A stretch of DNA of 64,000 nt from Thermoplasmatales archaeon I-plasma (GTDB lineage: Archaea > Thermoplasmatota > Thermoplasmata > Thermoplasmatales > GCA-001856825). The notes under the pieces are model-generated. The model did no database searches and had not been told where the DNA came from. It saw only the letters and a list, made by a program, of their open reading frames with translations. Shown here one piece after another: positions 4,735-20,257 of the stretch; within the stretch, counting starts at the first letter, position 1, and each line of letters starts with the position of its first letter. A program made the translations under genes and the position numbers. Location of the stretch: the NCBI GenBank assembly GCA_001856825.1, contig ATMD01000004.1, positions 170,568 to 234,567 of the forward strand, in the 5' to 3' direction.

Positions 4735-4751
4735 TATAATATTTCAAATCA

Positions 4752-5726
4752 GTGAAAATCAAGAACGCTTACAGGAATCCAACTATCAAGAATAAGAGAG
4801 TTCCTAGCAAAAAGGAGCTGCCTAAGATAATAATAGCGTCCACGTTAAGAGGGAGGCCCTCAGTCTCGTTGATAGCCTTCCTAGGTTTGAGGATAGAGAT
4901 GGTAGGGAATTTCAAAGGTAATGACGGACTGGTGATTTCTGACTTGCCTGAAATGAGGATATCTAACGAAAGATAGAATTTGAGAAAGTTCCGACAATCA
5001 TTAAAGTCAGGTCCACACTGAGCAAGGCACGAATACATCACGTTCTTGTCAAAAGGGGGCACAACATACCTCAAAGAGTATCTTGAATCCAGGATGGCTA
5101 ACGGTGAGAAGTTAACGGACAGTTCCCCACTGATCGCACTCGAGGGACCTGAGAACCTAGTCCACGAAAGAATGAGAACTCAGCTAGTATCCAGGGAGAT
5201 AAGAAAGGCAATCAGGAAATCGAATTTCCAATGGAGACCATACGTATTGAGGGCATACTTCTCAAGTGCCCTGGATGTATGCGAAAATAAGGGCCTGGTA
5301 TCTCACAACTGGAGGGAATACTGGACATGACACAAGGGAGACATTTCTGCCAGGTATTCAACAAACAAGAAACTAAAGCCTGACAAGATTGAGGAAATGA
5401 GGTCCACTTATCTGAAGTGCGTTCCGTATATAGAGACTGAAAAGAGGGAGATAAGCGAAGAAGAAAAGGAGAAGTGGAAAGTAGAGTTCAAGAGGGAATA
5501 TCTGAAGCTATTCTTTGACGATAAGGAGATAGATGATAACAAGCTGCTTGAACTACCCACTGAGGAAATGCAAAGAAAGATCAAGGAGAAGATGGGCATG
5601 TCACTGAATAACGGCCATTCCCGGAAGGTGATCCCACTGAAAGAGGTAAGGGAATATATAGAAAAAGGATGGGAATTTGTCCAGGGTATAAGCTCTAAAG
5701 AAGCTATCGTGAGGATCCCAAAGTGA
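4752..5726 (+). pseudogene. decayed tyrosine recombinase/integrase (catalytic domain only; two frameshifts and one in-frame TGA)
   Basis: Pieces in different frames read as ..LGLRIE.. / FEKVPTIIKVRSTLSKAR / SKGGTTYLKEYLESR..RPYVLRAYFSS..W*HKGDISARYS. The TGA is at 5328-5330. The N-terminal domain is absent and the remnant starts 17 nt after ppa. Confidence 0.75.
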
Positions 5727-5987
5727 GGTATTACTAATGAATGAAAAGTGTCTTCACAATCATGCTTTCAGAAATGGACAGCTCAAGAGGTATAATCTAT
5801 CCTGATACTGCTCAATCTCCTAATTCCAGAATAGAATGTTTGTGCCCCATTCCTGCTACAATTGAGCTTCAAGACGACATTTGACTTACTTGACCAAATT
5901 CAAACTTTTCTACCTTAAGGTCTGGACACAAACAATAATCCTGCGAAATTTGACTTTAGCAAATTTAATTATCCCATAATCAATTGA

Positions 5988-6809
5988 ATGGACATGGATA
6001 TTACCCTGATAGCAGTTGGACTTTCTGCACTTGTCTCAGGGATAATATCAGTGATGGTATTTTTGTATTCTCAAACCTATGTGACGGACAAATACCGTCG
6101 AAAGATTATAAAGGTTATATTTAGAAAAATAGCAATAAAATTGAGAACAGAAAACTCCAATAATCTATACGATACATTAGAGTGGGTATTCCTGGTAAAG
6201 TATTTCCACAAATTTGCCTACTTCTTCGGAGCTTTAGGGATCATTTCTCTTCTATCACTAAGAGACAAAGCTTTTGTTAGTGTGAATACCTTTTCAGTTA
6301 TAGAACTCATTTATGTTGTCGCTTTTATCTTTATTTTTCTATTTATGGGCGTATTTTCTTTGGTTAGAGTGAAGAAACAATCTGAAATGACTTATAAAAG
6401 GTATATTCTAAGAAATTCGCTGTCTTTCTACCCATCTGACTGGACAAGTGGATGGCTCCTATTTGTTCTTTTTACAGCCTCAATCTACTTTATAAATTTT
6501 AAAACATTGGAGTCATATTCAGAAATTATTCTTGCAAGTTCGGTTTCTTTTTCAACTTTATTCTTGTTCGTAGGTTGGGGGTATACTTTGCTCCCAATGG
6601 GAAAATACGTAGAAAAAAATTGGGATTTAGAGGCTAGATTATTTAGAGATGCAGCGTCTCTGGTGAATATCAAAATTCACACAGCGAATGACGTTGCTGC
6701 CGGAAGGATAACTGGAATCATGGATGAACTTGTGTTAACGACCAACGAACCCCAAAATAGTACTATATATGTGCCATGGGAAAACGTACTTTTCTTTGAA
6801 ATCGTCTAA
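5988..6809 (+). CDS. hypothetical membrane protein with a small soluble C-terminal domain
   Basis: Several TM helices and AT-rich codon usage. No recognisable motif. Confidence 0.45.
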   Translation: MDMDITLIAVGLSALVSGIISVMVFLYSQTYVTDKYRRKIIKVIFRKIAIKLRTENSNNLYDTLEWVFLVKYFHKFAYFFGALGIISLLSLRDKAFVSVNTFSVIELIYVVAFIFIFLFMGVFSLVRVKKQSEMTYKRYILRNSLSFYPSDWTSGWLLFVLFTASIYFINFKTLESYSEIILASSVSFSTLFLFVGWGYTLLPMGKYVEKNWDLEARLFRDAASLVNIKIHTANDVAAGRITGIMDELVLTTNEPQNSTIYVPWENVLFFEIV

Positions 6810-6972
6810 TTTACTATGGAAAGACGCAGGCTTTAGGCAATATCGAGACTTTCGTTGCAATTAGGATAAATACAATAAATTCTTGCTTCATTTTAAATGT
6901 TGACATAATTATGTTCCTATTGCAAGGACTGTACTACAAAGTCATACATATGCAGAAGTATTACTGCATTTC

Positions 6973-7380
6973 GTGGATATCCCTATCATCGGAATCATAC
7001 CATTCTGGATAAGCTTCGTCTACTATTACATTGCAGCAGCCGTCATCACCACATTCGGTGGAAGCGTTTTCACCTATTCCAGGAATAAGGCAGGGAGGAT
7101 TGCTTGGAGCAGGAGGAGGCAACCGTTGTGGAGAATTGTCATCGGTTATTTCCTTAGCACAGTGATACTTACCGTCATTTCATACCTCCTCTATCCAACA
7201 GTCATCCCCTTCCTCTACATGAATTTGAAATACACACCCTCCATGGCAGTACTCACCTCCACTGCCTACTTCTACTGGATACTCTGGGGATTCGGTAGAA
7301 GGATATCGAGGAATGTAGAGTGGATAGCAGGTCCAGTCATACTCTCTGCGATTGCTTGGTATATTGCAAATACATACTGA
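6973..7380 (+). CDS. hypothetical membrane protein
   Basis: Four hydrophobic helices. GTG start. Confidence 0.4.
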   Translation: MDIPIIGIIPFWISFVYYYIAAAVITTFGGSVFTYSRNKAGRIAWSRRRQPLWRIVIGYFLSTVILTVISYLLYPTVIPFLYMNLKYTPSMAVLTSTAYFYWILWGFGRRISRNVEWIAGPVILSAIAWYIANTY

Positions 7381-7584
7381 CTCCCTTCATATCCCGTGGG
7401 ATGGACATGTTTGCTTATATGTTCCCCCTCGAAGATTTCAGTGTCCGGAAAGGAAATCTTTTCTAGACAGGAGAGAGCTGTTTCGAAGGGTTATGTACTG
7501 ATATATATCACAAATGATAGGGGATCAAAAGATAAGGAATTCACATCCAAAATTTTTAAAGAATAAAAAATAAAGAAAATTAGT

Positions 7585-8056
7585 TTATGGTAGTGTTGTT
7601 GTTGCTGAGCCAGTGTAGCCGGTGCACGTAATCGTTATTATGTACTCTGACCAACCTGTAACCCCATTAATATAGAGAGGGTAATCGTGGCCCCGGATTG
7701 AATAACAGATGTACTTCCATCAGGGTTAACTATATAGCCAGTACCGCTTGTAGGAGATGCCGGAACTGCGGTTACGACGCTGACAGTGGCTAGCATCACG
7801 GTACCTCCCGGAGCAGTGTATGTCAAAGAAAACCCGCTGGGTTGCTCATTGATGCCGGGGTTGTGTAAGTAAGGCTTAATACAGCCTCATTTGAAGTCTC
7901 AGATTGTTCTGTAATTGTGGCAGCTAGTGGTGTTGATGCTCCTGTCGTTTAGTGGCTCTCCAGTATGTATACCGTTGCTGCAAGCACCACCGTTATCGCA
8001 ACCATTATAATGGTAGCTATATAAATTTGTAGTCCATAATTGAAAGGATGGCACAA
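7585..8056 (-). pseudogene. decayed archaeal type IV pilin-like gene (class III signal peptide type)
   Basis: Read from TTG at 8056: ..FNYGLQIYIATIIMVAITVVLAATVYILESH, then TAA, then the frame continues (TTGASTPLAATITEQ..SLTYTTPAS). It shifts into track ORF 7638..7826 (SLTYTAPGG..) and shifts again to ..VTGWSEYIITITCTGYTGSATTTLP*. Confidence 0.4.
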
Positions 8057-8066
8057 GTAAAAACTC

Positions 8067-8771
8067 TCATTTTAATGGAAACTTAGAGTTATTAATGAAT
8101 AAGTCAATAAAAAACACGAAAGAGAAGATTTCGTCGTTTTCCTCTGATATCCTTTTAAAAGAGGGTCTTATTTTTCTATTTATGTCATGTACGTAACTAT
8201 GCCGTTGTAGTATTATTTTTTTAATTTTAGGATAGAAGTCTTGCGGTAAATAAAAGTCTTCCGTTCCTCTTTTGGCATAAGGAATCACTTTCACTACGCC
8301 GGACTCGCTTATTCGTACGGCATTATTCTTGATTACTTCAAAGAAACTTATCTTTAATGCCCGAGAAAATGCCTTTTCGATATCATCTAAATCCAGAAAA
8401 TTGTACTTTTGCAGAATTGAATAGTTCATTAACTGCTTTATTGTAAATGTTTTCGATCTCCTGTCCAAAAGGTCCTTAAAACTGATAACATCGTCTTGAT
8501 CGACTATATTACTTAATTTCCTCCTCCGAGTAACCAAGTCTAAAAGCATATCCTTAAAATAAACTTCAAATCCGGTCACCATACGTATGGTAGCCGCCTT
8601 TCTAATCCAGATTCTCAGACCGTCCTCTTTGAAGCTCTTTTCTGAACGACTCAGAACATCATCAATACGGATCGATTCCTCGATGAATGTTTGAAGAGGG
8701 ATTCCGAACCTGGAATTCTTGCTTCTTACCTGCTCTATTGCCTTATCTAAATCAAAATGTGATTTGGGCAT
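8067..8771 (-). CDS. hypothetical protein with a C-terminal Rx4H motif (possible HEPN-type protein)
   Basis: Helical 234-aa protein containing KIILQRHSYVHDINRK. AT-rich. The motif is the only evidence. Confidence 0.4.
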   Translation of the reverse strand: MPKSHFDLDKAIEQVRSKNSRFGIPLQTFIEESIRIDDVLSRSEKSFKEDGLRIWIRKAATIRMVTGFEVYFKDMLLDLVTRRRKLSNIVDQDDVISFKDLLDRRSKTFTIKQLMNYSILQKYNFLDLDDIEKAFSRALKISFFEVIKNNAVRISESGVVKVIPYAKRGTEDFYLPQDFYPKIKKIILQRHSYVHDINRKIRPSFKRISEENDEIFSFVFFIDLFINNSKFPLK

Positions 8772-9025
8772 AAACTAACCTTCGTATCTGAATTTGTGAC
8801 CGGTAACTAGAGAAATTGCCCAACCATTGATCACTTTGTGAACTACTCTTTTCTTTATTATGGGATCATATGCTGTTATATATTTCTCTTTAGACCGTCT
8901 TTTTACCACATGTAAGTATTTCAAACAACTATTCAAATTCTTATAATTCGGATGCCTTCGCGAAATGTTTCTTTAATCTGTAGCTATTTTGTTACGGCAG
9001 CTATTCTTAGATTCTCCTTGAGGGG

Positions 9026-9646: not shown

Positions 9647-10069
9647 GTGAATTTGCTAGGAGGGCGTTCCTTCTTGCCTGACAACCTGACCTTGGAGAAG
9701 CGCAGCAAGGTCATGGCAAGCATAAGGGGGAAGGATACCAAGCCGGAACTCTTGTTATGGGACCTGCTTGATCATAGGAGATTCAGGAGATACCCGAGGA
9801 TCCACGGGAACCCTGACATAGGGAACAAGTCAATGAAGATCGCGATATTTGTTGACGGGTGCTTCTGGCATGGGTGCCCCAACTGCTACAAGCCTCCTAC
9901 CACTAGGCCCGAGTACTGGTCTATGAAACTTGAAAGGAACATCGCTCACGACAATAAGGTGAGCATGGAACTCAAGGACGATGGTTATACTGTCCTCAGG
10001 TTCTGGGAGCATGAAGTCATTACAGACCCCTCGGGCTGTCTCCGCAAGATAGTGGAGGTGCTTCAATGA
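9647..10069 (+). CDS. vsr: very-short-patch repair endonuclease
   Basis: RSKVMASIRGKDTKPE, IFVDGCFWHGCP and LRFWEHEV. 4-nt ATGA overlap with dcm. Confidence 0.9.
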   Translation: MNLLGGRSFLPDNLTLEKRSKVMASIRGKDTKPELLLWDLLDHRRFRRYPRIHGNPDIGNKSMKIAIFVDGCFWHGCPNCYKPPTTRPEYWSMKLERNIAHDNKVSMELKDDGYTVLRFWEHEVITDPSGCLRKIVEVLQ

Positions 10070-11238
10070 AGGAGCCCTTGACGTTCATAGACCTCTTTGC
10101 TGGAGCAGGAGGATTCTCGCTAGGCTTCCACCAGGCAGGTATGAAGGGGATATTTGCGATAGAACGCGACCCAATGGCATTCGAGACTCTCAGGTACAAC
10201 CTCATAGACAGGAAAAATGCTTTTGCGTGGCCTTCATGGCTGCCAGTTGCGCAAATGGATATAAGGTACGTCATTGACAAATACAAGGAAGAGCTAAAGG
10301 GGCTCAGGGGAGAGGTGGATCTTGTTGCAGGAGGGCCGCCTTGCCAGGGGTTCTCCACCGCGGGCAGGAGGATTGAGCATGACGAGAGGAACCAGATGTT
10401 TAGGGAATACATCAAGTTCGTAGAAATTGTCCAGCCAAGAATGATTCTCTTTGAGAATGTTCTAGGATTTGATATGCGATTCGGTGGTAAACAAGGAAAC
10501 GGGCCTTCGTATTCTAACTTGTTAGGAAATAGATTAAAACAAATTGGATTTGAAAAGCCTGCACTCAGAAAAGTAGACTTTTCGGAATACGGGGTGCCTC
10601 AGTTTCGTAAGAGGATAATACTATATTCTACGAAGAAAGGGATAGATCCAGAAACTTTTTTCGATCAACTTCTTAAGAAGAAGTCACATTCTAAAATATC
10701 AGTAAAACAAGCTACTTCCGACCTTCTACGTTCAAATGGCGAGGTGATAAGTCCGGATTCTCCAAATTTTATGAATGGTGTGTATGGTACTCCTTCAACA
10801 CAGTTCCAAAAGGCAATGCAAGAAAGCAACCAGAAAGGATTACCAGATAGTCATCGGTTCGCCAGACACAGCCAAAAAGTGGAGGAGAGGTTCAAGTTTA
10901 TTCTTCAGTCCCACTCAAAAGGAAAGAATCTTGACAATGTTTCGAAAGTAAATCTTGGATTAAAGAAGAGAACTGTGATACCGCTTGATCCTGATACTCC
11001 ATCTCCAACTCTAACAACTCTACCAGATGATTATATCCATTACGAAGAACCAAGGATTCTGACAGTTAGGGAATACGCCAGATTACAAACATTCCCAGAA
11101 TGGTACGAGTTCAAGGGGAAGTATACCACTGGTGGTAAATTGAGGACATTAGAAACTCCAAGATATACACAAGTTGCGAACGCTGTTCCACCAAAATTCT
11201 CTGAGCTGGTAGCTTTCATCCTTTCAGTACTACATTAA
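10066..11238 (+). CDS. dcm: DNA (cytosine-5)-methyltransferase
   Basis: Motif I FIDLFAGAGGFSLGF, motif IV GGPPCQGFS, motif VI FENV, motif VIII QFRKR, motif X ANAVPP. Confidence 0.95.
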   Translation: MKEPLTFIDLFAGAGGFSLGFHQAGMKGIFAIERDPMAFETLRYNLIDRKNAFAWPSWLPVAQMDIRYVIDKYKEELKGLRGEVDLVAGGPPCQGFSTAGRRIEHDERNQMFREYIKFVEIVQPRMILFENVLGFDMRFGGKQGNGPSYSNLLGNRLKQIGFEKPALRKVDFSEYGVPQFRKRIILYSTKKGIDPETFFDQLLKKKSHSKISVKQATSDLLRSNGEVISPDSPNFMNGVYGTPSTQFQKAMQESNQKGLPDSHRFARHSQKVEERFKFILQSHSKGKNLDNVSKVNLGLKKRTVIPLDPDTPSPTLTTLPDDYIHYEEPRILTVREYARLQTFPEWYEFKGKYTTGGKLRTLETPRYTQVANAVPPKFSELVAFILSVLH

Positions 11239-11242
11239 TACA

Positions 11243-12295
11243 TTACTTAGTTTCTTCCGCCCTAATTGACGTGATTTGTTCAGTTACACGTTCTATATCG
11301 ATTATGAGCCTCGTCAACTTGATAAAGAAGGACTTCATTGTTTTCCTGTCGTACCCTCCATCCTGAGGATTCTTTGCGTGAATGCCTATTTTCTCGCCGT
11401 CAAGGCTGGTTATGGGATTATGAGCAAAATCATCCCTAAATCCTGAATAAGCTATAGTCTCCCGTGAAAAGCGCTCTATTTTTCCCCTAATATCAGGCCC
11501 TATAATTTTGGATTCTTCTAAGATTTTGAAGACATTGGTCATATTCTTCGCTTTTCTGGTCAGGTCAAGTCCATTTCTCGTGAGCGTAAATTCCCTCAAA
11601 ATTTGTTTTCCTAGTTCCCTCATATCATCTTTTGTTCTGCCATTCAAGCCTTCTTTCGGTTCGTCTTCTAAATGAATTACAGTTACAACTAGTTCATTCC
11701 ATGCATTATCCAAATCTGCAAATCTTGAAAGGGCTAATCCCCTAATATATTCAGGGTTGGTCCAGAAGAGGTAAAATTTAGTAGTTGCAGCTAGCAATGT
11801 TGGCTTCAAGTCATCACGACTTGTTGTCCAAATTCTCCCATATGGGTTTGAATGCTCAAAATCTGGAAGATCCGGGAGGTTTGTGTACAAGACCGAATCT
11901 AAGGGATAACGCCTCCTTGATATTTCCTCCAGTACTTCCTTTCCTGATTCTGGATTTCCAGGTAAATTGTTGTCTAAAACAACGATATCAGGAATATTGT
12001 CCGACTGTGCAAGATCTATTAACTTTTTCTTGAATTCCCCCTCTACCTTGCTATCGAACAATTTGTACGGAAGGATCCCTGTAACCTTTATCCGTCCTTT
12101 ATTGTCCAATTGCTTGAACTGGCGATGAACGCTTTCAGCTACCTTCATGATATCTGTGTTAATATCTTCTAAAATGTCTGGAGAATCTTCCATTACGGCG
12201 TACTCAATGGTTAGATCGGACGATGTCCCTTCAGATTTCTGGTCGCTGTTCACAACGTCACCTCGAAGCAAGCCCCACTCATTCCCTTTTCGCAT
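11243..12295 (-). CDS. receiver (REC)-like domain fused to a HEPN-like domain; candidate effector of the upstream kinase
   Basis: REC landmarks AVMEDSPD, DIVVLDNNLPG, SVLYTNLP and DLKPT. C-terminal FRDDFAHN (Rx4H). The likely start is GTG at 12253, overlapping the kinase TGA (GTGA) with GGTGA 4 nt upstream. The track start at 12295 is an alternative. Confidence 0.55.
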   Translation of the reverse strand: MRKGNEWGLLRGDVVNSDQKSEGTSSDLTIEYAVMEDSPDILEDINTDIMKVAESVHRQFKQLDNKGRIKVTGILPYKLFDSKVEGEFKKKLIDLAQSDNIPDIVVLDNNLPGNPESGKEVLEEISRRRYPLDSVLYTNLPDLPDFEHSNPYGRIWTTSRDDLKPTLLAATTKFYLFWTNPEYIRGLALSRFADLDNAWNELVVTVIHLEDEPKEGLNGRTKDDMRELGKQILREFTLTRNGLDLTRKAKNMTNVFKILEESKIIGPDIRGKIERFSRETIAYSGFRDDFAHNPITSLDGEKIGIHAKNPQDGGYDRKTMKSFFIKLTRLIIDIERVTEQITSIRAEETK

Positions 12296-12509
12296 GCGTT
12301 TCCTACAAACTTGATGGACCCCCCGATCTCATTTAATATTTTCTTTACTATATACAGACCTATTCCAGAACCTGCAGTTGATGAAGACCAAGGCCTAAAA
12401 AGATTTGAAGCCTCTCTATCAGATATTCCCTTTCCATCGTCTGTGAACCTTATTGCTAACTTTCCATCCTGATTGATTCGCGCAGTTATTTTTATCAATA
12501 AGGGATTCA

Positions 12510-12520
12510 CTTTTGTACAG
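12510..12520. repeat. target-site duplication, left copy (CTTTTGTACAG)
   Basis: Identical 11-mer at 13731-13741, abutting the other IS end. Confidence 0.85.
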
Positions 12521-12708
12521 GACATTGGGACAGAAGTGACTAATCTTCATCCTTCTTTATGATCAGGAAGGCCTTCTTCCCCAGAAACTCCTTAGGACAG
12601 TCAACTTTGGCACCAGATCCAAATTTTGTGACTGTCCTTTCCATGTAAGCCTGAATGTTCTTCACGGTGATCTGGTTCCCTTCCTTTATCTGTACCTTGC
12701 GCACAAAT

Positions 12709-12717
12709 GTATATATA
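12709..12717 (+). promoter_or_regulatory. putative TATA box for a leaderless transposase mRNA
   Basis: The A/T run GTATATATA lies about 25-30 nt upstream of the ATG at 12742. Confidence 0.3.
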
Positions 12718-12741
12718 CCCCATATATATTACATTTTCGTA

Positions 12742-13710
12742 ATGAGGATCACCCAGCTGGACTATGAGTATTTCCGTGACTCCATTGAAGAACTCATGTC
12801 CCGCTACAGGGAGGAATTCTCCATACCAGTGACAACAAACTGGAGGGATTACGAGTATCTCTACAGGCAGAGGATGAAGGGCATGGCTCTGGAGCTCAGA
12901 GCAATGATAGACGAGTCCTCTTCCTTCGTTGTAGAGGAGTTTGGAAGACCCTCGTTGCTGGAAGCAAGGGAGAAGGTCTTCGTTATCCTTGTGAAGGAGA
13001 TATTCCGACTGAGCAACAGGAAGGCCGCTTACCTCCTTCCTCTTCTCGGAATTAGCAAGGACATCAGTTACAAGACCGTCGAGAGGCTATATTCAGATCC
13101 TCTTGTCCTGATGATATTGAATAACCTCTTCATCAGCTCCGTCATGAGAAAGGGCATCTCTTCCGCTGACACATCGGGTGACGGTACCGGGTATTCCCTC
13201 ACCGTCACGAAGCACTACCGTTCCATGAGGGAGAAAGATGGTGAATTTGTGAAGGAGGGGAAGTTTGTCTATTCATTCGCACTGATGGATCTGGCAACAA
13301 GGATGTATGTTGGATATGCAGTTTCCGTCAGATCGGAGAAGGATGCGTATCATAAGGCATTAGAGATGATAGGTAAGATGCGCATTGACCTTAAGAGCAT
13401 CCGTTTGGACAAATATTACTCGGGACAGAGCATACTTGATGATTTCAATGAAAACACAATGATATTCCTCATCCCTAAGAGCAACTCCAGGATAAGGGGA
13501 AGAAGGAACTGGAGGGAAATAATCAGGCGCTTCATGGATGATCCGATGAACTATCTCAGGGAATACTTCAAGAGGAATGCATCAGAATCTGGATTCTCCT
13601 CAGACAAGAGAGCTACGGGAGGCCTGATATATCAGAGGAGGAAGGACAGAAAAGAAACGTCAGGGTTCTGCAAGGGGCTCATTCACAATTTGATGTTATT
13701 GCACAGTTAG
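12742..13710 (+). CDS. IS transposase (DDE, with a Y-x2-R-x3-E-x6-K signature)
   Basis: SGDGTGYS, IRLDKYYSG and YFKRNASESGFSSDK (the YREK motif of IS4/IS5-like transposases). The ATG at 12742 is preferred to the track start at 12655, whose N-terminus is low-complexity. Confidence 0.8.
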   Translation: MRITQLDYEYFRDSIEELMSRYREEFSIPVTTNWRDYEYLYRQRMKGMALELRAMIDESSSFVVEEFGRPSLLEAREKVFVILVKEIFRLSNRKAAYLLPLLGISKDISYKTVERLYSDPLVLMILNNLFISSVMRKGISSADTSGDGTGYSLTVTKHYRSMREKDGEFVKEGKFVYSFALMDLATRMYVGYAVSVRSEKDAYHKALEMIGKMRIDLKSIRLDKYYSGQSILDDFNENTMIFLIPKSNSRIRGRRNWREIIRRFMDDPMNYLREYFKRNASESGFSSDKRATGGLIYQRRKDRKETSGFCKGLIHNLMLLHS

Positions 13711-13730
13711 AGGGACTTCTGTCCCAATAT

Positions 13731-13741
13731 CTTTTGTACAG
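13731..13741. repeat. target-site duplication, right copy (CTTTTGTACAG)
   Basis: Identical 11-mer at 12510-12520. Confidence 0.85.
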
Positions 13742-15720
13742 TTATCTATAATATTGTCGACCACTAGAGATATTGTCTCAGGAAATATCTCTCTCCTGTA
13801 GTTTATGTTCCCCACTTCGATCTGTAGGCTAATTCCCCTCCTGTCCAGAGATTTCGGCCAGAATTCTCTTACATATTGTTCAATATATGATGGAATGTTA
13901 GTTTCTTCCTTCCTGGACACATCCCACCTTGCCTTTAGAACCAGTTTGTTTCTTTCTTTCAGGAGCTGCAGTTCCTTCACAGCATCTTCTATTTTATCTA
14001 GCAAATTACGTGACAGGTTATTTTCTTTGGCATACTTACCAATATCCAATAGAGCTGGTTCCAGCCGTCTCGCAATAATGTTGAGGTTATGTTCTGCTAT
14101 CAACCTGAGAGTACCTGTCTTGACATATTGGGATGCGGTGCGCATAAATACTGCATCGTCCTCAGCTGCTGCTGCTTCAGACTCTATTTCTTTAAGAGAT
14201 TCCCTGAAGGCTGAAAGATACCTTCCCAGAGCTTTTCTTTTCTCTGGGTCCAGGTCTTTCGAAAGGTCTTCAATAAACTCCAGGCTTTCATATGCCCCTT
14301 TTTCCCGGACAGCTTCTGTGAGGGAGTCAGCGTATTCAACTGATAAAACATTCTTGTCGGACGTTGCCATTCCAGCCAGAAATTCAATAACCTTTGCGTT
14401 TCTTTCTGCTTTTTCCTCCTTGCTGGACGGAAGCTGCCACTCTGATGATTTTACAACATAATTCTCTAGCCTAAGGACTACCTTATCTCGCACGAATTTC
14501 ACGAGTTCATCTCTTGCGTCTCCGTCTTTTATGCCAGAATCCCTGCTTGATGCCTCTTCCCAAACTCCTCGTATATCGGTCACCGCCACCCTCCCGAACA
14601 ATTCTCTAGAAGAAAGGAACCTCCGGTAACCCTGCTGTTTCCTCATGTTCAGCCCCAACCAGTCATCATTAGGTTCACCATAAGGGAAAACCCTTACGCC
14701 ATTTCTATACAAGAAGACATTGCCGTAGTTTACTGGTGCGATTCCAACTGTTCTGGTAAATTTCCCTTTAGCAGCTTGGTCAAGATAGAAAACATCGGCT
14801 TCGATAGAGGTGATAAATTTCAACCCCTCTACTCGCTCATTCAGCTTGTAAAGTTGCACCCCGCGGTCTAACAGTATTGTCGTTAATATCCCATCTTTGA
14901 GCGAAACCGATATCTTTGTTGCTACGCCCTCCAGGTCTTGGAAAAGGGTACTTCGAACTAGACCATTAACTACATCTGCTGGACGCTTCTTCGCGATGCT
15001 TTCTTCTTCAGTTCTTAAAAACGGAGCATCGATTGTAACCTTGAAGCGACCAAGTCCTGCCGGGCTTACTGGATCTAACAGTTTCTGGAAATGTCGCTTC
15101 AATCTTAGTACTCCTTGATAATCCCATTGTTCTCTCAAACCGCCTATTACTAAGAGAGTACCGCTTTCTATTCCTGCAGCAAGCGATGGAGTCTTCTTCT
15201 CTTCGCGGATAACTACGGGTATTTCTTGAAAATCCTTGTCCGGAGCATCCTGAAATTTCTTCCAGTCGGCTATCAGGTGGTTCCAAGAGGATGTCCCACT
15301 AGTTCTCGTATAAAGATCAAGCGTCTCACCAAGTTTATCACAAGAGAACCTTCCTATTCCTTTCCTTCCAACAGGTATCTTTGATAGTTTTAGATCACCT
15401 CTTTCTATTTCATCTAGGGTGTCACGCTTAGATGATTTAGCAACATTCATCCATTTATCTTCTATGTCTTTCCTACTCATTCCAGACCCATTATCTAGTA
15501 TTGCGATCTTGGTCGGGGGGGAATGGTCATCGTTGGAGATGAACTTCACCCAAGCATCCGTTGCTCCGGCGTCATAAGAATTCTTGACGAGCTCGAATAC
15601 AGCCACATATTTGTTTGTTAGCAGTTCCCTCCCAATTAGATCCTTCAAGTAAGTGTTAATGCGAAAATGCAGTGGTTTGAAGTTTGTATAATCCTCATTC
15701 ATGCTCTCTCACCTTAGATC

Positions 15721-15759
15721 CTACCCCTCCAGTATCTCTTCAATCCCCTTCTCTATCAT
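15721..15759 (-). other. 12-codon mini-ORF MIEKGIEEILEG, a relic of a wHTH gene tail
   Basis: Its ATG overlaps the SHOCT gene stop (ATGA, 15756-15759). The sequence is homologous to the 3' end of the wHTH gene at 18979..19275. It ends 18 nt before the GHKL-kinase ATG. Confidence 0.35.
15726..15751. repeat. junction repeat, copy 3 (23/26 identical to copy 2)
   Basis: CCTCCAGTATCTCTTCAATCCCCTTC compared with CCTCCAATATCTCTTCTATCTCCTTC. Confidence 0.7.
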
Positions 15760-16130
15760 TTCCCCAAATCCTCCTTCATCTTATCGTACTGGTCTTTCGA
15801 TATTTCACCCTTTGCATATCTTTCCCTGAGTATCTCCAATGCATCGTCATGGTCCCACCATCTCCATTTGTGGTCAGAATACCTTGAAGCTCTTGATATC
15901 CATCCTATAGACCTTGCGAACCATACTATTGCCCATATGAAGAGGAAGAGGAAGAACAGGCCTATGAGAACTCCCATTACGCTTCCCGCCACTCCTATCC
16001 ATCCTGAGAATGTGTTGGGGAAGGCATGGGAATTGAATATCACGCTGAGTATTGCTGCGATCCCTATGAGTATGAACATGACGGTGAAGCCGTACCAGAA
16101 TACTCTCCTAGGATCACGGCTGTAGGTCAT
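15756..16130 (-). CDS. membrane protein with a C-terminal SHOCT domain
   Basis: Two to three TM helices followed by DDALEILRERYAKGEISKDQYDKMKEDL, the SHOCT signature. Confidence 0.7.
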   Translation of the reverse strand: MTYSRDPRRVFWYGFTVMFILIGIAAILSVIFNSHAFPNTFSGWIGVAGSVMGVLIGLFFLFLFIWAIVWFARSIGWISRASRYSDHKWRWWDHDDALEILRERYAKGEISKDQYDKMKEDLGK

Positions 16131-16175: not shown

Positions 16176-17141
16176 TCAATGTGAATCACTACGCTCTGTT
16201 ATCCGTTTCAACAATTCTGAGTAGTATGACATCAAAGATACAGTGAAGCGATAAGCAAGCAGCGCATCCTCTCTCTTTATCGAGTAAACGTCTTTATGGG
16301 GGCCCATCTGTGTCAATTTGTCCACACGTCTCTTGAGTTCTAAGATATCGTTTATGAATGAGTCCAGTGACTCCTGTATGCTATTTACCCTTTCATCCTT
16401 CGTTGGCTGATTGACCTCCGATTCCGAATCCTCGTTTATTTTCTCCTTTATCATTTTCAGGTATTTGCTTAGATAAGGGTCCATTCGGTCCCAAGCAGAC
16501 CTGAGGTCTGACACTACCTGATCCGCAGGCGCATTCTCCATTATGCCCTTCCCAGCCTTTTCTATGAATTCCACAACTTCGTGGTACCCTTCAAGCTTAG
16601 GCCTCTCCATTTCAACTATCCATCTTTCAGAGTAACCCAGGTCACGCAAGAATTTGGCCCACTCTCTTTCTGAGAACTTCCAAGGGATATGAAGCATGAA
16701 TCTTTTGCTGGTGGAGATCGGCTGAATACTATCTGGACGATGTGGAATAATTTTTCCTTCCAAGACAAGATTTAACGTTATATCGTCAACTCTCTTTGAC
16801 TCAATTTCCTTGAGGTCTTCGATGGAAATTCTTAAAATGTAACTAGCGTTGGCTACCATGTGTGGATCGACGGAACCCTGACTGATGTAGCTGTGCGAGA
16901 CAGGTATATTCTGAAACACTAAAGCAAGATTAGTTTCATCAATCGAATAGCCAACATTATAATAAGGTTGGCCGGGTTGGTCTAACTTCTTGCCGTACTC
17001 GGCTCCAACATTTAGCTTGATTTCAAAAACTGCAATTGGTACTTTGTTCAAAACTTTCCATTCAATAGGATCATTTATGAAGATTTTACCATCGAAGTCA
17101 GCTTGGAATTCAGACAATTTAACCATATATCTTGTCACCAT
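16176..17141 (-). CDS. hypothetical protein: beta-rich N-terminal half and helical C-terminal half
   Basis: 321-aa ORF in an operon-like array. No motif I can assign. Confidence 0.5.
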   Translation of the reverse strand: MVTRYMVKLSEFQADFDGKIFINDPIEWKVLNKVPIAVFEIKLNVGAEYGKKLDQPGQPYYNVGYSIDETNLALVFQNIPVSHSYISQGSVDPHMVANASYILRISIEDLKEIESKRVDDITLNLVLEGKIIPHRPDSIQPISTSKRFMLHIPWKFSEREWAKFLRDLGYSERWIVEMERPKLEGYHEVVEFIEKAGKGIMENAPADQVVSDLRSAWDRMDPYLSKYLKMIKEKINEDSESEVNQPTKDERVNSIQESLDSFINDILELKRRVDKLTQMGPHKDVYSIKREDALLAYRFTVSLMSYYSELLKRITERSDSH

Positions 17142-17174
17142 CCATTTTCATACAATCTTCCAATTTTTCTACGG

Positions 17175-17981
17175 TCATTTTATTTTTGCCTCCAATAAAT
17201 CCAAATTCTCTAGGGCCTTCTTTTGTTCTTGTCCTTTCAATAAAGTGTTTGCTTGCGGGGGCCATATAATATCGCAGGCACTCTTTACAGGGTCATATAT
17301 TATTATGCCTGAACCTTGCATCTTTAACTTCTTCAAAACAGATTTACCAGCTTCATTCATATTATTTCTTTTCATTGATTCTTCGATAAGTAATCCAGGG
17401 GTAACAACAGCATATACATTGCGGGAGAAGGTTGAGGCATCAGCTAGCTGGCTCAGAAGATGGTCAAAAGCACCAGATTTAGCCTTGACTTCAACAGAAA
17501 GGACATACCTGCTAAATTTTCCCAGTAAGGACTCCTTCTTAAATAGCGTGATATCAGCAAACCTGATGCCTTGTTTCCCTCGCTTATTATGAGTGTCAAT
17601 TACGATCAAGTTTTTGAAACTATTTTGTTTTCTCAGAAATTTAACAATGTCTTTATAAATATCCTTCTCGTCATCTACATGACCAAATACCTTCTTTACT
17701 TTGGAGTCAGGAAGCCCCGCGTCTTTCCATATGCTTTGGATTAAAATAGCATAGGGATCCCATCCTCTGAATTTATCTTGATATGAGCATCTTTTGCAGA
17801 CATTTTTGAGTGCTTTGATTCTATCTTCTTTTTTCAGCTGATTATATTTTTTCAATTCCATTTTCGGTTTATCTCCTTGCTGAATTACGTTCAGCAAATT
17901 GAGATAACAGACAGTATCTCCACTGCTATCAATCAGTCTCTTAATGATTTCATCAATATCCAGTCCAAAATATTTGGTCAT
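17175..17981 (-). CDS. PD-(D/E)xK nuclease-fold protein (putative)
   Basis: GIRFADITLF, then 17 residues (KKESLLGKFSRYVLSVE up to the motif), then LSVEVKAKSG, giving D...E-x-K spacing, followed by a Q-containing helix (LLSQLADAS). Confidence 0.5.
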   Translation of the reverse strand: MTKYFGLDIDEIIKRLIDSSGDTVCYLNLLNVIQQGDKPKMELKKYNQLKKEDRIKALKNVCKRCSYQDKFRGWDPYAILIQSIWKDAGLPDSKVKKVFGHVDDEKDIYKDIVKFLRKQNSFKNLIVIDTHNKRGKQGIRFADITLFKKESLLGKFSRYVLSVEVKAKSGAFDHLLSQLADASTFSRNVYAVVTPGLLIEESMKRNNMNEAGKSVLKKLKMQGSGIIIYDPVKSACDIIWPPQANTLLKGQEQKKALENLDLLEAKIK

Positions 17982-18044
17982 TCATCTCTCCTCCAATATC
18001 TCTTCTATCTCCTTCAGATGTTTTGCAACTTTCCCTAATTTCAT
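17982..18044 (-). other. 20-codon mini-ORF MKLGKVAKHLKEIEEILEER, a relic of a wHTH gene tail
   Basis: Its ATG overlaps the stop of the 312-aa gene (ATGA, 18041-18044). Its TGA directly abuts the ATG of the 268-aa gene (TGAATG). Confidence 0.35.
17990..18033. repeat. junction repeat, copy 2
   Basis: The 41-nt core at 17993-18033 matches 18990-19030 at 39/41 positions. Confidence 0.85.
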
Positions 18045-18979
18045 TCCCTCCACCTCACAGAAATAGAATCGTCTGAATATCCAAAATGTTTCATCAATGA
18101 CTTTACCAATTGTTCTATTCTTCTGGAGCCATAATTGGTCTCTAAATAGAGGCCGTTCGATAGCTTATAGGGATTGGCGAACTTATTATTTTTGTTTTGG
18201 TGGATTGGCTCAGTGTTGATTAACCACCTATCTGGGCCCGACGGGAGCCTAAAGGGATTTGTTATCTTCCCCTTGGAAATTAACCATTCGGCGGTCTTTA
18301 TGAGAATTTGATTGGATTTGTTGACATTAAATACTTCCCCATTTATAGATAGACTGATTGGGCGAAGAGGCCTATTCCGTTTTCTTCCACCTTTAATATT
18401 ATAAGATTTAGTCGATTCCAGTGGCGTATCTTTCACGGGCAGTACTTCATCCTTTGAGCTTCTTTCAGATTGAGTAAGGATAGGCTCTGCCGTGACTTCT
18501 CCGAATGATTCTAAATTCGCAATAGAGATTGACTTAATTGCCACTTTGGATTCCTCGTCGTTAATGATGTCCCATTCTATGATCTTCTTCTCAGGCAATC
18601 TGGTTACTTTATATGTGTCATACAGCTCCCAATGATTTCCATCCGTGGCAATAAAAAATTTCACACCTTCAGAAACGCAGTATGAAATGTGCTGCTGAAG
18701 GTCTTCGTTCTTGCCAAGTTTCTTGGCCCCGATAAAGGCCCTAGGACTGTTCTTATTGTGTAAAAACAGGGCATAATCTGGTCTTCCTGCATCGGTTGAG
18801 TATTCTGGTTTGACTTGTTCTGGGTCTTCGGTGTCCCAACCTAGTCCCCTTAAAAACGGGTCGACGAGGGAGTACCTGACAAGCGCTTCGTTTTTAGAAA
18901 ATTCGTCCCTGTATTTTCTAATTTTCTCTCTTAGCTCTCTTATTAATTCAATGTTATCTCCAATAGATATTTTGGCCAT
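18041..18979 (-). CDS. HsdR-N-terminal-like (type I restriction enzyme R N-domain) PD-(D/E)xK protein with an unknown C-terminal domain
   Basis: NEALVRYSLVDPFLRGLGW, GRPDYALF, AFIGAKKLG, QQHISY and KFFIATDGNHWELYD. The expected catalytic Glu of ExK is Gly (GAK). Confidence 0.6.
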   Translation of the reverse strand: MAKISIGDNIELIRELREKIRKYRDEFSKNEALVRYSLVDPFLRGLGWDTEDPEQVKPEYSTDAGRPDYALFLHNKNSPRAFIGAKKLGKNEDLQQHISYCVSEGVKFFIATDGNHWELYDTYKVTRLPEKKIIEWDIINDEESKVAIKSISIANLESFGEVTAEPILTQSERSSKDEVLPVKDTPLESTKSYNIKGGRKRNRPLRPISLSINGEVFNVNKSNQILIKTAEWLISKGKITNPFRLPSGPDRWLINTEPIHQNKNNKFANPYKLSNGLYLETNYGSRRIEQLVKSLMKHFGYSDDSISVRWRE

Positions 18980-19275
18980 TATTCGCCTCCCAATATCTCT
19001 TCTATCTCCTTCAAATGCTTTGCAACTTTCTTGCCTTTCTCGGTGAGAGAGATAACATTTTGAGGATGATTCCTACTTTTATCTACGGTCATTGTAATCA
19101 GGTCTAATTCTTTCAGCGCTGCGAGTGTTCTGTATAAGGTAGTAGAGGAAATTCCCTTGTCATCAATAAATGACTGAAAATTCAACTTATTTTCAATTTC
19201 TAGAATAAGGAGGATACGTATCATTTGCGCATGTCTCTCAAATGACTGAATTTTAAATTGCTGTGTACTTTTCAC
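18979..19275 (-). CDS. small winged-helix transcription regulator
   Basis: 98 aa with GTG start. ISSTTLYRTLAALKELDLI (recognition-helix-like), then a wing, then a C-terminal helix. Its stop overlaps the next ATG (TAATG). Confidence 0.6.
   Translation of the reverse strand: MKSTQQFKIQSFERHAQMIRILLILEIENKLNFQSFIDDKGISSTTLYRTLAALKELDLITMTVDKSRNHPQNVISLTEKGKKVAKHLKEIEEILGGE
18986..19030. repeat. junction repeat, copy 1 (the authentic 3' end of the wHTH gene)
   Basis: See copy 2. Encodes ..KVAKHLKEIEEILGGE*. Confidence 0.85.
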
Positions 19276-19319: not shown

Positions 19320-19877
19320 TTAGAAGTGAAATGTATTAATATTGATTATACGTTTCACCTTTTCTTGTATGATGCCATGTATGATTGGCCGCAAAATCAC
19401 CCTAAGATAAATTATTCCGGTTTGTTTCAGAAAGGCGCACAATACATGATTAATGAAGGAAAGACAAGTCTTATCCTGAGTTACATAGAGCGCTGTAGGT
19501 GATTCACCATGACTTTTCCGCCAGACAATGAACGGAGAGAATATGCCTCCTATTACATAAAGGCAGTCAAGATATTCAAAGTGGTGTTCAAATAGCTCAA
19601 CGGAAGGGACCAACGGAATTAGAAATCGGTGACTTCTAGAAGATAGGCGTCATAACATTTGGGTACATTCCGAGGGGAAACGACCAGCAAAGGTTTTCAC
19701 AGGAATGGCCACAAAGTATCTAAAATACGGCCAAGAATTATAATAAAACAAGCTCCTCAGAACAACAGAAGAATCAACCCACACTGCAGCAGAAAGCTGT
19801 TGAGCCAAATACCGGATGGAAATCAGAAATCCTGAGACTTTTGAACCAATTTCATCAGAATCTAGAAAAGAAATCAC
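19320..19877 (-). pseudogene. 186-codon reading frame interrupted by a single in-frame TGA; unknown function
   Basis: Track ORFs 19650..19877 and 19320..19613 are in the same frame, separated only by a TGA at 19650-19652 and 12 sense codons. Confidence 0.35.
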
Positions 19878-20055
19878 AGTCCAAGATTGTCATCGTGAAG
19901 AAGCTCCCCGGTGGTAATTGGAAACCTAACGAACGGGTTATCGTGCCATAACTTGACACTCCTGCCTTCCGGGAGGTTTCAATTTTTGGAGACTTTTGTC
20001 GTCGTGCACCACAGTTTGGAATTAAAAAGCTCTCGTCATGATATAAATGTCTCTA

Positions 20056-20130
20056 CGGGCCCGCCGGGATTTGAACCCGGGTCGTCGGCTCCGAAGGCCA
20101 AAAGGATGATCCAAACTACCCCACGGGCCC
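20056..20130 (-). tRNA. tRNA-Arg (anticodon UCG)
   Basis: Hand-folded cloverleaf: acceptor GGGCCCG/CGGGCCC, T-arm CCGGG-TTCAAAT-CCCGG, anticodon arm TTGGC-CTTCGGA-GCCGA. No encoded CCA. Confidence 0.85.
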
Positions 20131-20257
20131 GCAACTATATTCCGTAAATGTTATAAAAGATGCCTTTTCCATTGTTATTCCTGAGAAGTGAAGTGTGAAC
20201 ATGCATATGGTTACAGTAATCAGTTAGTTTTTTATCATCATAGGCATAAGGTGCTTA

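Follow-up and report, generated by a model that had tools for sequence, protein, structure and literature searches.

This report concerns an array of four genes at positions 16176-19275 of a 64,000-nt stretch of DNA (the window; contig ATMD01000004.1, positions 170,568 to 234,567) from Thermoplasmatales archaeon I-plasma, an acid-mine-drainage archaeon of the Thermoplasmatota. The array is probably, at odds that we place slightly above even (about 0.55), a stack of separately mobile accessory genes, led by genes for winged helix-turn-helix (wHTH) proteins and lodged in a decayed integrative element, with predicted nuclease-based roles in exclusion or defense. The mosaic ancestry of the array, its element context and the conservation of its key residues are seen in the compared sequences; the roles are assigned from domains and gene neighborhoods.

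All four open reading frames (ORFs) are real genes with homologues, and they lie on the minus strand where an earlier sequence-only reading had described four linked genes. The first (18979-19275; family label fam1) encodes a small winged-helix regulator of 98 aa. Its stop codon overlaps the start of the 312-aa gene (18041-18979) by 1 nt (TAATG), and the product of the latter (EQB64622) is an HSDR_N (COG4748-like) protein of the PD-(D/E)xK class. After a gap of 59 nt comes the 268-aa gene (17175-17981; EQB64621), with an N-terminal helical domain and a predicted PD-(D/E)xK nuclease core, and after a further 33 nt the 321-aa gene (16176-17141), with an N-terminal beta-sandwich and a C-terminal helical domain as modeled. 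Homologues number 83 for the 312-aa protein and 34 for the 321-aa protein. The 268-aa protein has 2 close and ~30 distant relatives of similar length, 32 being found among the 1.84 billion representatives covered by an exhaustive search. Homologous regions of other genomes that were compared with the array are labeled L001, L003, L005 and so forth.

The evidence for separate mobility begins with the 59-nt spacer ahead of the 268-aa gene, which is the relic of a second wHTH 3' end (17982-18033, minus strand). It retains the final ~17 codons (KVAKHLKEIEEILEER) and the stop, lies directly 5' of the 268-aa gene, and constitutes, with the 3' end of the resident wHTH gene, a direct repeat (D1) of 64 nt and 80% identity. 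The presence of a wHTH 3' relic between the 312-aa and 268-aa genes therefore identifies the array as a fusion of two modules. The two modules have counterparts in close strains. L015 has the order wHTH-268-321-SHOCT, with an intact wHTH gene directly before the 268-type gene and without the 312-type gene. L013 has the order wHTH-312-relic-261aa-SHOCT relic-178aa-SHOCT; here the same wHTH relic follows the 312-type gene (94% identity to that of the window; SHOCT, 87%), but the gene beyond it is a different, distant member of the 268 family, and the 321-type gene is missing. A wHTH gene stands directly before the 312-type gene in the window, L007 and L013, and directly before the 321-type gene in L021, L030 and L005. 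Its family is present in nine loci, L011 having three copies and a relic and L013 two copies. In L007 and L013 a 312-type gene replaces the 321-type gene at the same position; the wHTH-312 pair of L007 adjoins tRNA-Ala and is followed by the SHOCT gene and a DUF87 ATPase gene. The order of the 312- and 321-type genes is not fixed either, since 312 precedes 321 in L011 and 321 precedes 312 in L017.

The SHOCT gene shows the same kind of scar. SHOCT 3' relics lie beside an intact SHOCT gene, or replace it, in L001 (5996-6305), L007 (8251-8436) and L013 (3173-3313). These relics, of the same style as the wHTH relic, suggest that the breaks made during cassette exchange fall within the two conserved flanking genes. 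The GGAGG ribosome-binding site of the downstream gene sits within the conserved wHTH 3' end, and this offers a simple reason why the wHTH 3' end travels with the cassettes.

These arrangements bear on the proposal that the array is one coordinated system, in which an inactive 312-aa sensor, an active 268-aa effector and a 321-aa partner would operate under the wHTH protein. Such a system would account for the tight same-strand linkage of the four genes, for the 312-then-268 order in two strains (window and L013), for the 268-then-321 order in the window and L015, for the tightly coupled 312/321 neighbors of L011 and L017, and for the defense-rich surroundings. Yet no locus outside this strain lineage holds all three families together, and the 268-aa protein has only ~32 relatives, the 312 and 321 families being wider. 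Neither the gene order nor the partners are constant, every family occurs elsewhere without the other two behind a wHTH gene of its own, many 312 homologues are solitary, and the relic shows that the array arose by fusion. The 312-aa active site, moreover, may be a functional variant, as discussed below. We consider a single coordinated system quite unlikely. The defense cassette of the sequence-only reading survives in part: defense genes abound around members of the 312 and 321 families, but the idea of one conserved operon does not fit the separate wHTH-led families, the relic and the variable combinations.

The wHTH protein falls narrowly above the Pfam HTH_34 cut-off (27.5 bits vs 27; 3.6e-6), with PadR at 3.4e-5. 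It matches PHROG transcriptional regulators, and in PADLOC-DB v2 and NCBIfam finds only a weak AgaR/Csa3-like match. A palindrome, GTGAAATGTAT-N11-ATACGTTTCAC, whose inverted pair is 91% complementary, lies at 19326-19358, 51-83 nt 5' of the wHTH start, and is a candidate operator of this regulator. L030 and L013 have palindromes of their own, each specific to its element, at the corresponding site, as putative counterparts. The start codon of the wHTH gene is uncertain. An 18-nt direct repeat (AAATGACTGAAAATTCAA / AAATGACTGAATTTTAAA; 19168-19185 and 19240-19257, 72 nt apart) lies within the annotated 5' coding part of the gene, and would be a possible regulator site should translation actually begin further downstream. 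In related elements the fam4 gene always diverges from the wHTH gene (L001, L007, L013, L021, L030).

A small DNA-binding gene that overlaps a larger nuclease-fold gene, in a mobile element that may hold several wHTH copies (L011, L013), could also be taken for a toxin-antitoxin or addiction module, with the wHTH protein as antitoxin and repressor and the nuclease as a toxin that stabilizes the element. We regard this as very unlikely. The 268-aa and 321-aa genes of the window persist with a mere wHTH relic, an argument against a strictly required cognate antitoxin, and solitary 312 homologues have no wHTH gene upstream. The proteins are also large for type II toxins, and they have no similarity to known toxin families in Pfam, NCBIfam or PADLOC.

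The 312-aa protein exceeds the Pfam gathering score for HSDR_N (PF04313; 29.7 vs 25.1 bits), a domain matched by 32/32 of its aligned relatives. Among the PDB sequences, the family profile (alignment A3) matched solely the N-terminal nuclease domain of HsdR, the type I R subunit (3h1t; E 7e-4). The HsdR-N-like assignment of the sequence-only reading holds, and the sequences bear the motifs that it quoted: the 312-aa protein has GRPDYALF, FIGAKK and FIATDGNHWELY, the 268-aa protein FADI and SVEVKAK. By family, the 312-aa protein would be a COG4748-like stand-alone nuclease. The source database annotates it as a 'Predicted type IV restriction endonuclease', and its PHROG matches are to an endonuclease (phrog_4225, 9e-11) and, for the C-terminal domain, to a family of unknown function (phrog_32890, 1.7e-7). 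The layout is D68...G84-A-K86...E92-D93...Q95...Y100, a variable linker, and a conserved C-terminal domain at ~215-312. D68, K86, Q95 and Y100 align with the nuclease motifs of HsdR, and the 'vgAK' of the family stands opposite the 'vEAK' of 3h1t. The replacement of Glu by Gly at ExK, earlier proposed by eye, is borne out by this profile alignment, and with Gly at the Glu position the protein lacks the canonical D...(E/D)xK triad.

The loss is a property of about half of the family. Among 82 relatives the ExK position is Gly in 45/82 and Glu in 37/82, while D68 and K86 are invariant. Positions 92 and 93, the Glu-Asp pair of the 312-aa protein, are acidic in 100% and 91% of the Gly group, compared to 16% and 3% of the Glu group. 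The pair lies 8-9 residues after the lost Glu, just ahead of the conserved Q95...Y100 helix. In Cfr10I, a documented PD-xxK-E variant, the catalytic Glu has moved off the third strand and into the helix next to it (PMC3424549). Because the loss of the Glu co-occurs with the gain of the acidic pair, as in PD-xxK-E, the earlier 'inactive sensor' is not the safest interpretation and is now doubtful; the E92/D93 pair may substitute for the lost residue.

The C-terminal domain of the 312-aa protein has no Pfam match. Some 312 paralogues have RAMA or Mrr_N in its place; in type IV fusions, RAMA has been proposed to read methyl-adenine (PMC11037411). A RAMA-like identity for the domain itself is unsupported (hhalign probability 0.6%). 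No methyltransferase gene adjoins the 312-aa gene within the array, and none adjoins the solitary 312 homologues. The distant homologues, including all of the Glu-type bacterial ones examined, are solitary genes amid housekeeping genes, without an upstream wHTH gene.

The 268-aa protein has no match in Pfam, NCBIfam, PADLOC or PHROGs, nor does its family profile find a match among the sequences of the PDB. Its core has the full E...D...(E/D)xK...Q set (E105, D143, E164-V-K166, Q178), and these residues are conserved in the family: E105 in 30/30 members, D143, E/D164 and K166 in 29/30 each, and Q178 in 28/30. The D...EVK motif that the sequence-only reading had called apparently intact is borne out by this conservation. 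The AlphaFold2 (AF2) model has a predicted local distance difference test (pLDDT) score of 92.7. Foldseek matches of the model in the PDB are weak (E >= 0.03), and most of the leading ones are PD-(D/E)xK nucleases (BsaWI, XisH, SfsA, SPARDA, MspJI, AspBHI, Card1 and Can2 are among them). In a profile-profile alignment of the 268 and 312 families all motifs were in register, at a score that is not significant. From its motif set, the 268-aa protein is predicted to found an undescribed PD-(D/E)xK family.

Homologues of the 321-aa protein begin at its Met6 (alignment A1), and therefore its true start is probably at 17126. No significant family match was found in Pfam, NCBIfam, PADLOC or PHROGs, and none by profile against the PDB sequences. 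The protein that the sequence-only reading could not place by motif is likewise explained by no known family. The best match to a defense model is weak (PDC-M62B, 3.9e-4) and is seen in 2/30 family members. The AF2 model has an overall pLDDT of 76.5, with ~90 for the N-terminal domain and lower confidence in the C-terminal helical half. The N-terminal beta-sandwich (residues 8-156) resembles, by Foldseek, the luminal domain of TMEM106B (8b7d, 5e-5) and AF_0446 (3but, 2e-4), and is similar to the LEA_2 / TMEM106B-luminal / AF_0446-type sandwich (TM-score 0.56-0.61, normalized to target length). Its sequence identity to these proteins is ~10%, the likeness is without functional implication, and the C-terminal half is unmatched. 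The remaining matches were to generic beta-sandwiches, and the helical half has no fold match by Foldseek in the PDB or in BFVD. The helical domain has the invariant residues R214, K248, G280, H282, Y286, D292 and R298 (alignment A1). A canonical HEPN assignment for it was rejected by eye: there is no Rx4-6H motif, and the conserved His precedes the conserved Arg. As modeled, the 321 family is an undescribed beta-sandwich/helical protein family.

The two halves of the 321 family have diverged discordantly. The N-terminal half is highly variable overall, and the identity of the halves is 61% N-terminal vs 38% C-terminal for homologue P0003 and 21% vs 58% for P0010; such discordance indicates recombination between domains (mosaicism) within the family. 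A separate observation is that of an uncharacterized protein of 314-319 aa, which recurs in L005 (11025-12634), L013 (4931-6871), L032 (545-2466) and L030 (2192-3151). In L005, L013 and L032 a radical SAM enzyme forms a pair with it, and in L030 and L032 it directly follows a 321 homologue.

The array lies at one edge of a genomic island. A tRNA-Arg(TCG) gene (20055-20131, minus strand; ARAGORN and Rfam) forms the right edge, with its 3' end toward the cassette, and related elements adjoin tRNA-Ala, tRNA-Ile or tRNA-Asp genes in the same geometry. Between the tRNA gene and the wHTH gene is a frameshifted pseudogene of the backbone gene fam4 (19499-19921, plus strand), recognized in two frames by tblastn with the fam4 proteins of L001, L007, L013 and L021 (E 5e-31 to 2e-13). 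On the other side, a gene for a SHOCT-domain membrane protein of 124 aa (15756-16130, minus strand; Pfam SHOCT 3.3e-9) is conserved and flanks the variable cassette region on the right-hand side, with homologues of 56-90% identity in L007, L013 and L015. It is followed by the gene for a GHKL-type ATPase (12250-15702, minus strand; HATPase_c_3 2.4e-18, HATPase_c 8e-13), which is either downstream backbone or cargo. An insertion sequence (IS; transposase at 12655-13710, plus strand) splits it into pieces of 668 and 91 aa, while related strains have it intact (743 aa, annotated 'sensor histidine kinase'). The fam4, wHTH, SHOCT and HATPase_c_3 genes of the window are syntenic with those of L001, L007 and L021; in L001, as in the window, the HATPase_c_3 gene comes after the SHOCT sequences, there represented by relics.

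Four related loci (L001, L003, L005 and L021) bear a tyrosine integrase gene, followed by small ORFs (fam4 where detected), and then, in divergent orientation, a small ORF or wHTH gene, a 321 homologue and variable cargo. A tRNA gene precedes the integrase gene in L001, L003 and L005, and none was seen on the short contig of L021. The island of the window shares with these elements both the adjacency to a tRNA gene and the backbone genes. It has no intact integrase gene at its tRNA-proximal end, and as there is neither an integrase at this end nor a repeat of the tRNA, we judge the element to be decayed. One reading frame at 4737-5729 (plus strand), just after a pyrophosphatase gene, has three in-frame stops and aligns weakly with the integrases of related elements (hhalign probability 15%, E 0.0018), GPH*ARHEYITFL standing opposite the box II motif HMARHTYATEL. 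It may be a dead tyrosine recombinase that marks the far end of the island. The guanine-plus-cytosine content is 0.35-0.36 at 6001-9000 and 17001-18000, compared to 0.45-0.51 for core genes on the flanks, among them the kdp operon (21.5-25.8 kb), and these patches are consistent with a foreign origin of the island. A viral (provirus) origin is unsupported, IMG/VR being nearly empty of 312 and 321 relatives and BFVD giving no convincing match to the 321 model.

The same elements raise the possibility, in our estimate a rather unlikely one, that the genes of the array are backbone genes for the control, maintenance, recombination or replication of the element, the 321-type gene above all, since this is, as a rule, the large gene that comes first in the rightward operon. 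It does stand directly after the divergent control region in the integrase-bearing L001, L003, L005 and L021, elements in which Pfam marks no replication or packaging gene, and the fam4, wHTH and SHOCT genes are syntenic. A core function is difficult to reconcile with the 312-type gene that takes the 321 position in L007 and L013. It fits poorly also with 321-type genes in type I restriction-modification operons and beside prokaryotic Argonaute (pAgo) or type II genes, where the examined stretches of L025, L026 and L029 give no integrase or fam4 match. Furthermore, the 321-aa protein lacks motifs of an NTPase, primase or recombinase, and shows high variability and mosaicism in its N-terminal half.

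A defense or exclusion role of the array is plausible, to judge from the neighborhoods. A 321 homologue is directly 3' of a type I hsdR gene in L026, and an HsdR-derived ORF lies upstream of one in L025 and L028. Other 321 neighbors are a Piwi protein (pAgo; L025), an MvaI/BcnI restriction-modification system (L029), type IIG enzymes (L005, L017), Csa1 with a BrxC/D-like ATPase (L016), PLD-SNF2 (L036), HEPN (L018) and PIN (L026). By our own tally, made without a formal control, ~11/15 informative 321 contexts have recognizable defense genes. The neighbors of the 312 and 321 families also include SLFN_AlbA_2 and type I, IIG and II restriction-modification genes, and in L009 a 312 homologue has a DpnII restriction-modification system on one side and a Gabija-like OLD/UvrD pair on the other. 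In the 321 neighborhoods, whose examination had been suggested earlier, most contexts contain defense genes, and the partners and their order vary. A constant PD-(D/E)xK neighbor of the 321-type gene was considered and rejected, as hhalign comparison of its other neighbors with the 268 and 312 profiles was not significant. None of the four proteins matched a named anti-phage system in PADLOC-DB v2, NCBIfam, Pfam or PHROGs beyond weak scores, and the earlier statement that no named system fits agrees with the PADLOC run. Within the window itself the defense-type genes are vsr-dcm, RiboL-PSP-HEPN and the GHKL ATPase. Cargo of related loci deserves separate record: a 615-aa protein with a DUF87 (HerA-like) ATPase and DUF6884 in L007 (8895-13760), the Gabija-like OLD-TOPRIM and UvrD pair in L009 (9817-13461), and the Piwi-domain protein with two unknown partners in L025 (3495-6979).

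From these data we infer regulation by the wHTH protein, nuclease activity, a role in defense or exclusion, and the independence of the three larger proteins, in a scheme that would run as follows. The array would make up the variable accessory part of a decayed integrative element, at the end near tRNA-Arg. Elements of this family would have the wHTH gene at a divergent control region, its 3' end giving the ribosome-binding site of the next gene. That next gene would be interchangeable (312-, 268- or 321-type), with the SHOCT gene as the other conserved flank. In I-plasma, two wHTH-led modules would have been joined, leaving the wHTH 3' relic ahead of the 268-aa gene. The wHTH protein would regulate itself and be co-expressed with the genes downstream; the analogies are a controller protein that precedes its restriction endonuclease, and lambda cI-rexAB. 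The 312-aa protein would be an HSDR_N nuclease that stands alone, with its catalytic acid moved as in the PD-xxK-E type and with a C-terminal domain akin to a DNA reader, and would act in the manner of a methyltransferase-less (type IV-like) restriction enzyme. The 268-aa protein would be an independent, active PD-(D/E)xK nuclease. In the defense-island-associated 321-aa protein, the variable beta-sandwich might confer specificity, and the conserved helical domain activity.

Several points weigh against this scheme. The 312- and 321-type genes are tightly coupled in two distant genomes, abutting directly (0 nt) in L011 and overlapping by 4 nt in L017, and such coupling could be a sign of functional partnership rather than independence. 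The succession of a 312-family gene and a 268-family gene likewise recurs, in the window and in L013. The covariation of E92/D93 with the Gly could be explained by clade history. The C-terminal domain of the 312-aa protein has no detectable RAMA similarity, and its role as a reader is a positional analogy with the RAMA and Mrr_N paralogues. A repeat search found no attachment (att) repeat of the tRNA-Arg gene within the window, and the viral contigs of IMG/VR hold no 321 relative and a single remote 312-family match. The defense role, finally, is plausible as guilt by association alone.

Other genes of the island are of note. Overlapping genes for Vsr and a C5 cytosine methyltransferase (dcm) lie within 9647-11238. 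A 350-aa ORF (11243-12295, minus strand), directly 3' of the split ATPase gene, weakly resembles a receiver domain at its N-terminus (E 0.004) and has, by eye, an RDDFAH motif (Rx4H, HEPN-like) close to its C-terminus. The vsr-dcm genes and this ORF are reported as oriented opposite to the disrupted GHKL ATPase gene (13696-15702). The N-terminus of the split ATPase resembles the BbrUII/HgiDII family of restriction enzymes (NCBIfam 1.7e-18, far under the family cut-off), and together with vsr-dcm it may represent a 5-methylcytosine restriction-modification system inactivated by the IS. A 234-aa protein (8067-8771, minus strand; RiboL-PSP-HEPN, Pfam 1.5e-11) is another defense-type gene of the island.

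The immune gene content of archaea is far less charted than that of bacteria, and this locus adds well-defined candidates. Two of its families, the 268-type nuclease and the 321-type protein, are undescribed, and their neighborhoods point to conflict with mobile DNA. The natural Gly/Glu split, with its covarying acidic pair, in a COG4748-type nuclease affords a clean test of the migration of a catalytic residue. The elements would form an archaeal family that integrates at tRNA genes and exchanges its accessory genes through junctions lying within the conserved flanking genes. Current ideas are left standing by the I-plasma array, the value of which is in its set of candidates. A bolder proposal, to which we give a small chance, is that the 321 family is a new archaeal defense component working with HSDR_N-type nucleases, and that the wHTH and SHOCT 3' ends are cassette-exchange junctions of a somewhat integron-like hotspot in widespread archaeal integrative elements. 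The partnership is suggested by the location of 321-type genes beside 312-type genes (window, L011, L017), hsdR (L026), HsdR-derived ORFs (L025, L028) and type IIG genes (L005, L017).

Among known systems, the closest to the 312-aa protein are the stand-alone HSDR_N/COG4748 predicted type IV endonucleases, which belong to the PD-(D/E)xK clan in the group of the EcoR124I/HsdR N-terminal nuclease (PMC3424549). The protein is like them in its PF04313 domain, its motif residues, its single gene and the lack of an adjoining methyltransferase gene, and departs from the COG4748 norm in the Gly at the ExK Glu, the covarying Glu-Asp pair and the undescribed C-terminal domain. With the Cfr10I/NgoMIV PD-xxK-E variants it shares the loss of the beta-3 Glu and an acidic residue in the region of the adjacent helix (PMC3424549). 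Unlike Cfr10I, it is of a different family, and its acidic pair comes 6-7 residues after the Lys. The corresponding spacing in Cfr10I is 14 residues.

Operons of controller (C) proteins and restriction endonucleases, for example those of PvuII and AhdI (PMC2175313, PMC2275141, PMC2632904), have in common with the array a small DNA-binding gene immediately 5' of the nuclease gene, the two being predicted to share a transcript, and an upstream palindrome, and in L001 and L011 a wHTH copy is divergent from a Dam-type methyltransferase gene. Whereas C proteins are of the Xre type, the regulator of the array is an HTH_34/PadR-like winged helix, and no cognate methyltransferase gene adjoins the array. 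Assignment of the array to the C-protein-controlled restriction-modification systems was rejected on the class of the regulator and the lack of a methyltransferase; where a C-box operator would be expected, only the candidate palindrome lies upstream. The elements most similar in organization are the defense hotspots of integrated elements. P2/P4-type prophage hotspots have variable defense cargo between conserved flanks. The array is similar in its interchangeable nuclease-type genes between the wHTH/fam4 and SHOCT flanks, and its family is similar also in its adjacency to tRNA and integrase genes and in its cargo of restriction-modification and other defense genes. The cargo of Tn7 is a further example of such a hotspot (PMC8649781). 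What sets the I-plasma family apart from those hotspots is its hosts, which are Thermoplasmatota and other archaea, its other flanking genes, and its exchange junctions, which lie within the flanking genes, at their 3' ends, and from which relics stay behind.

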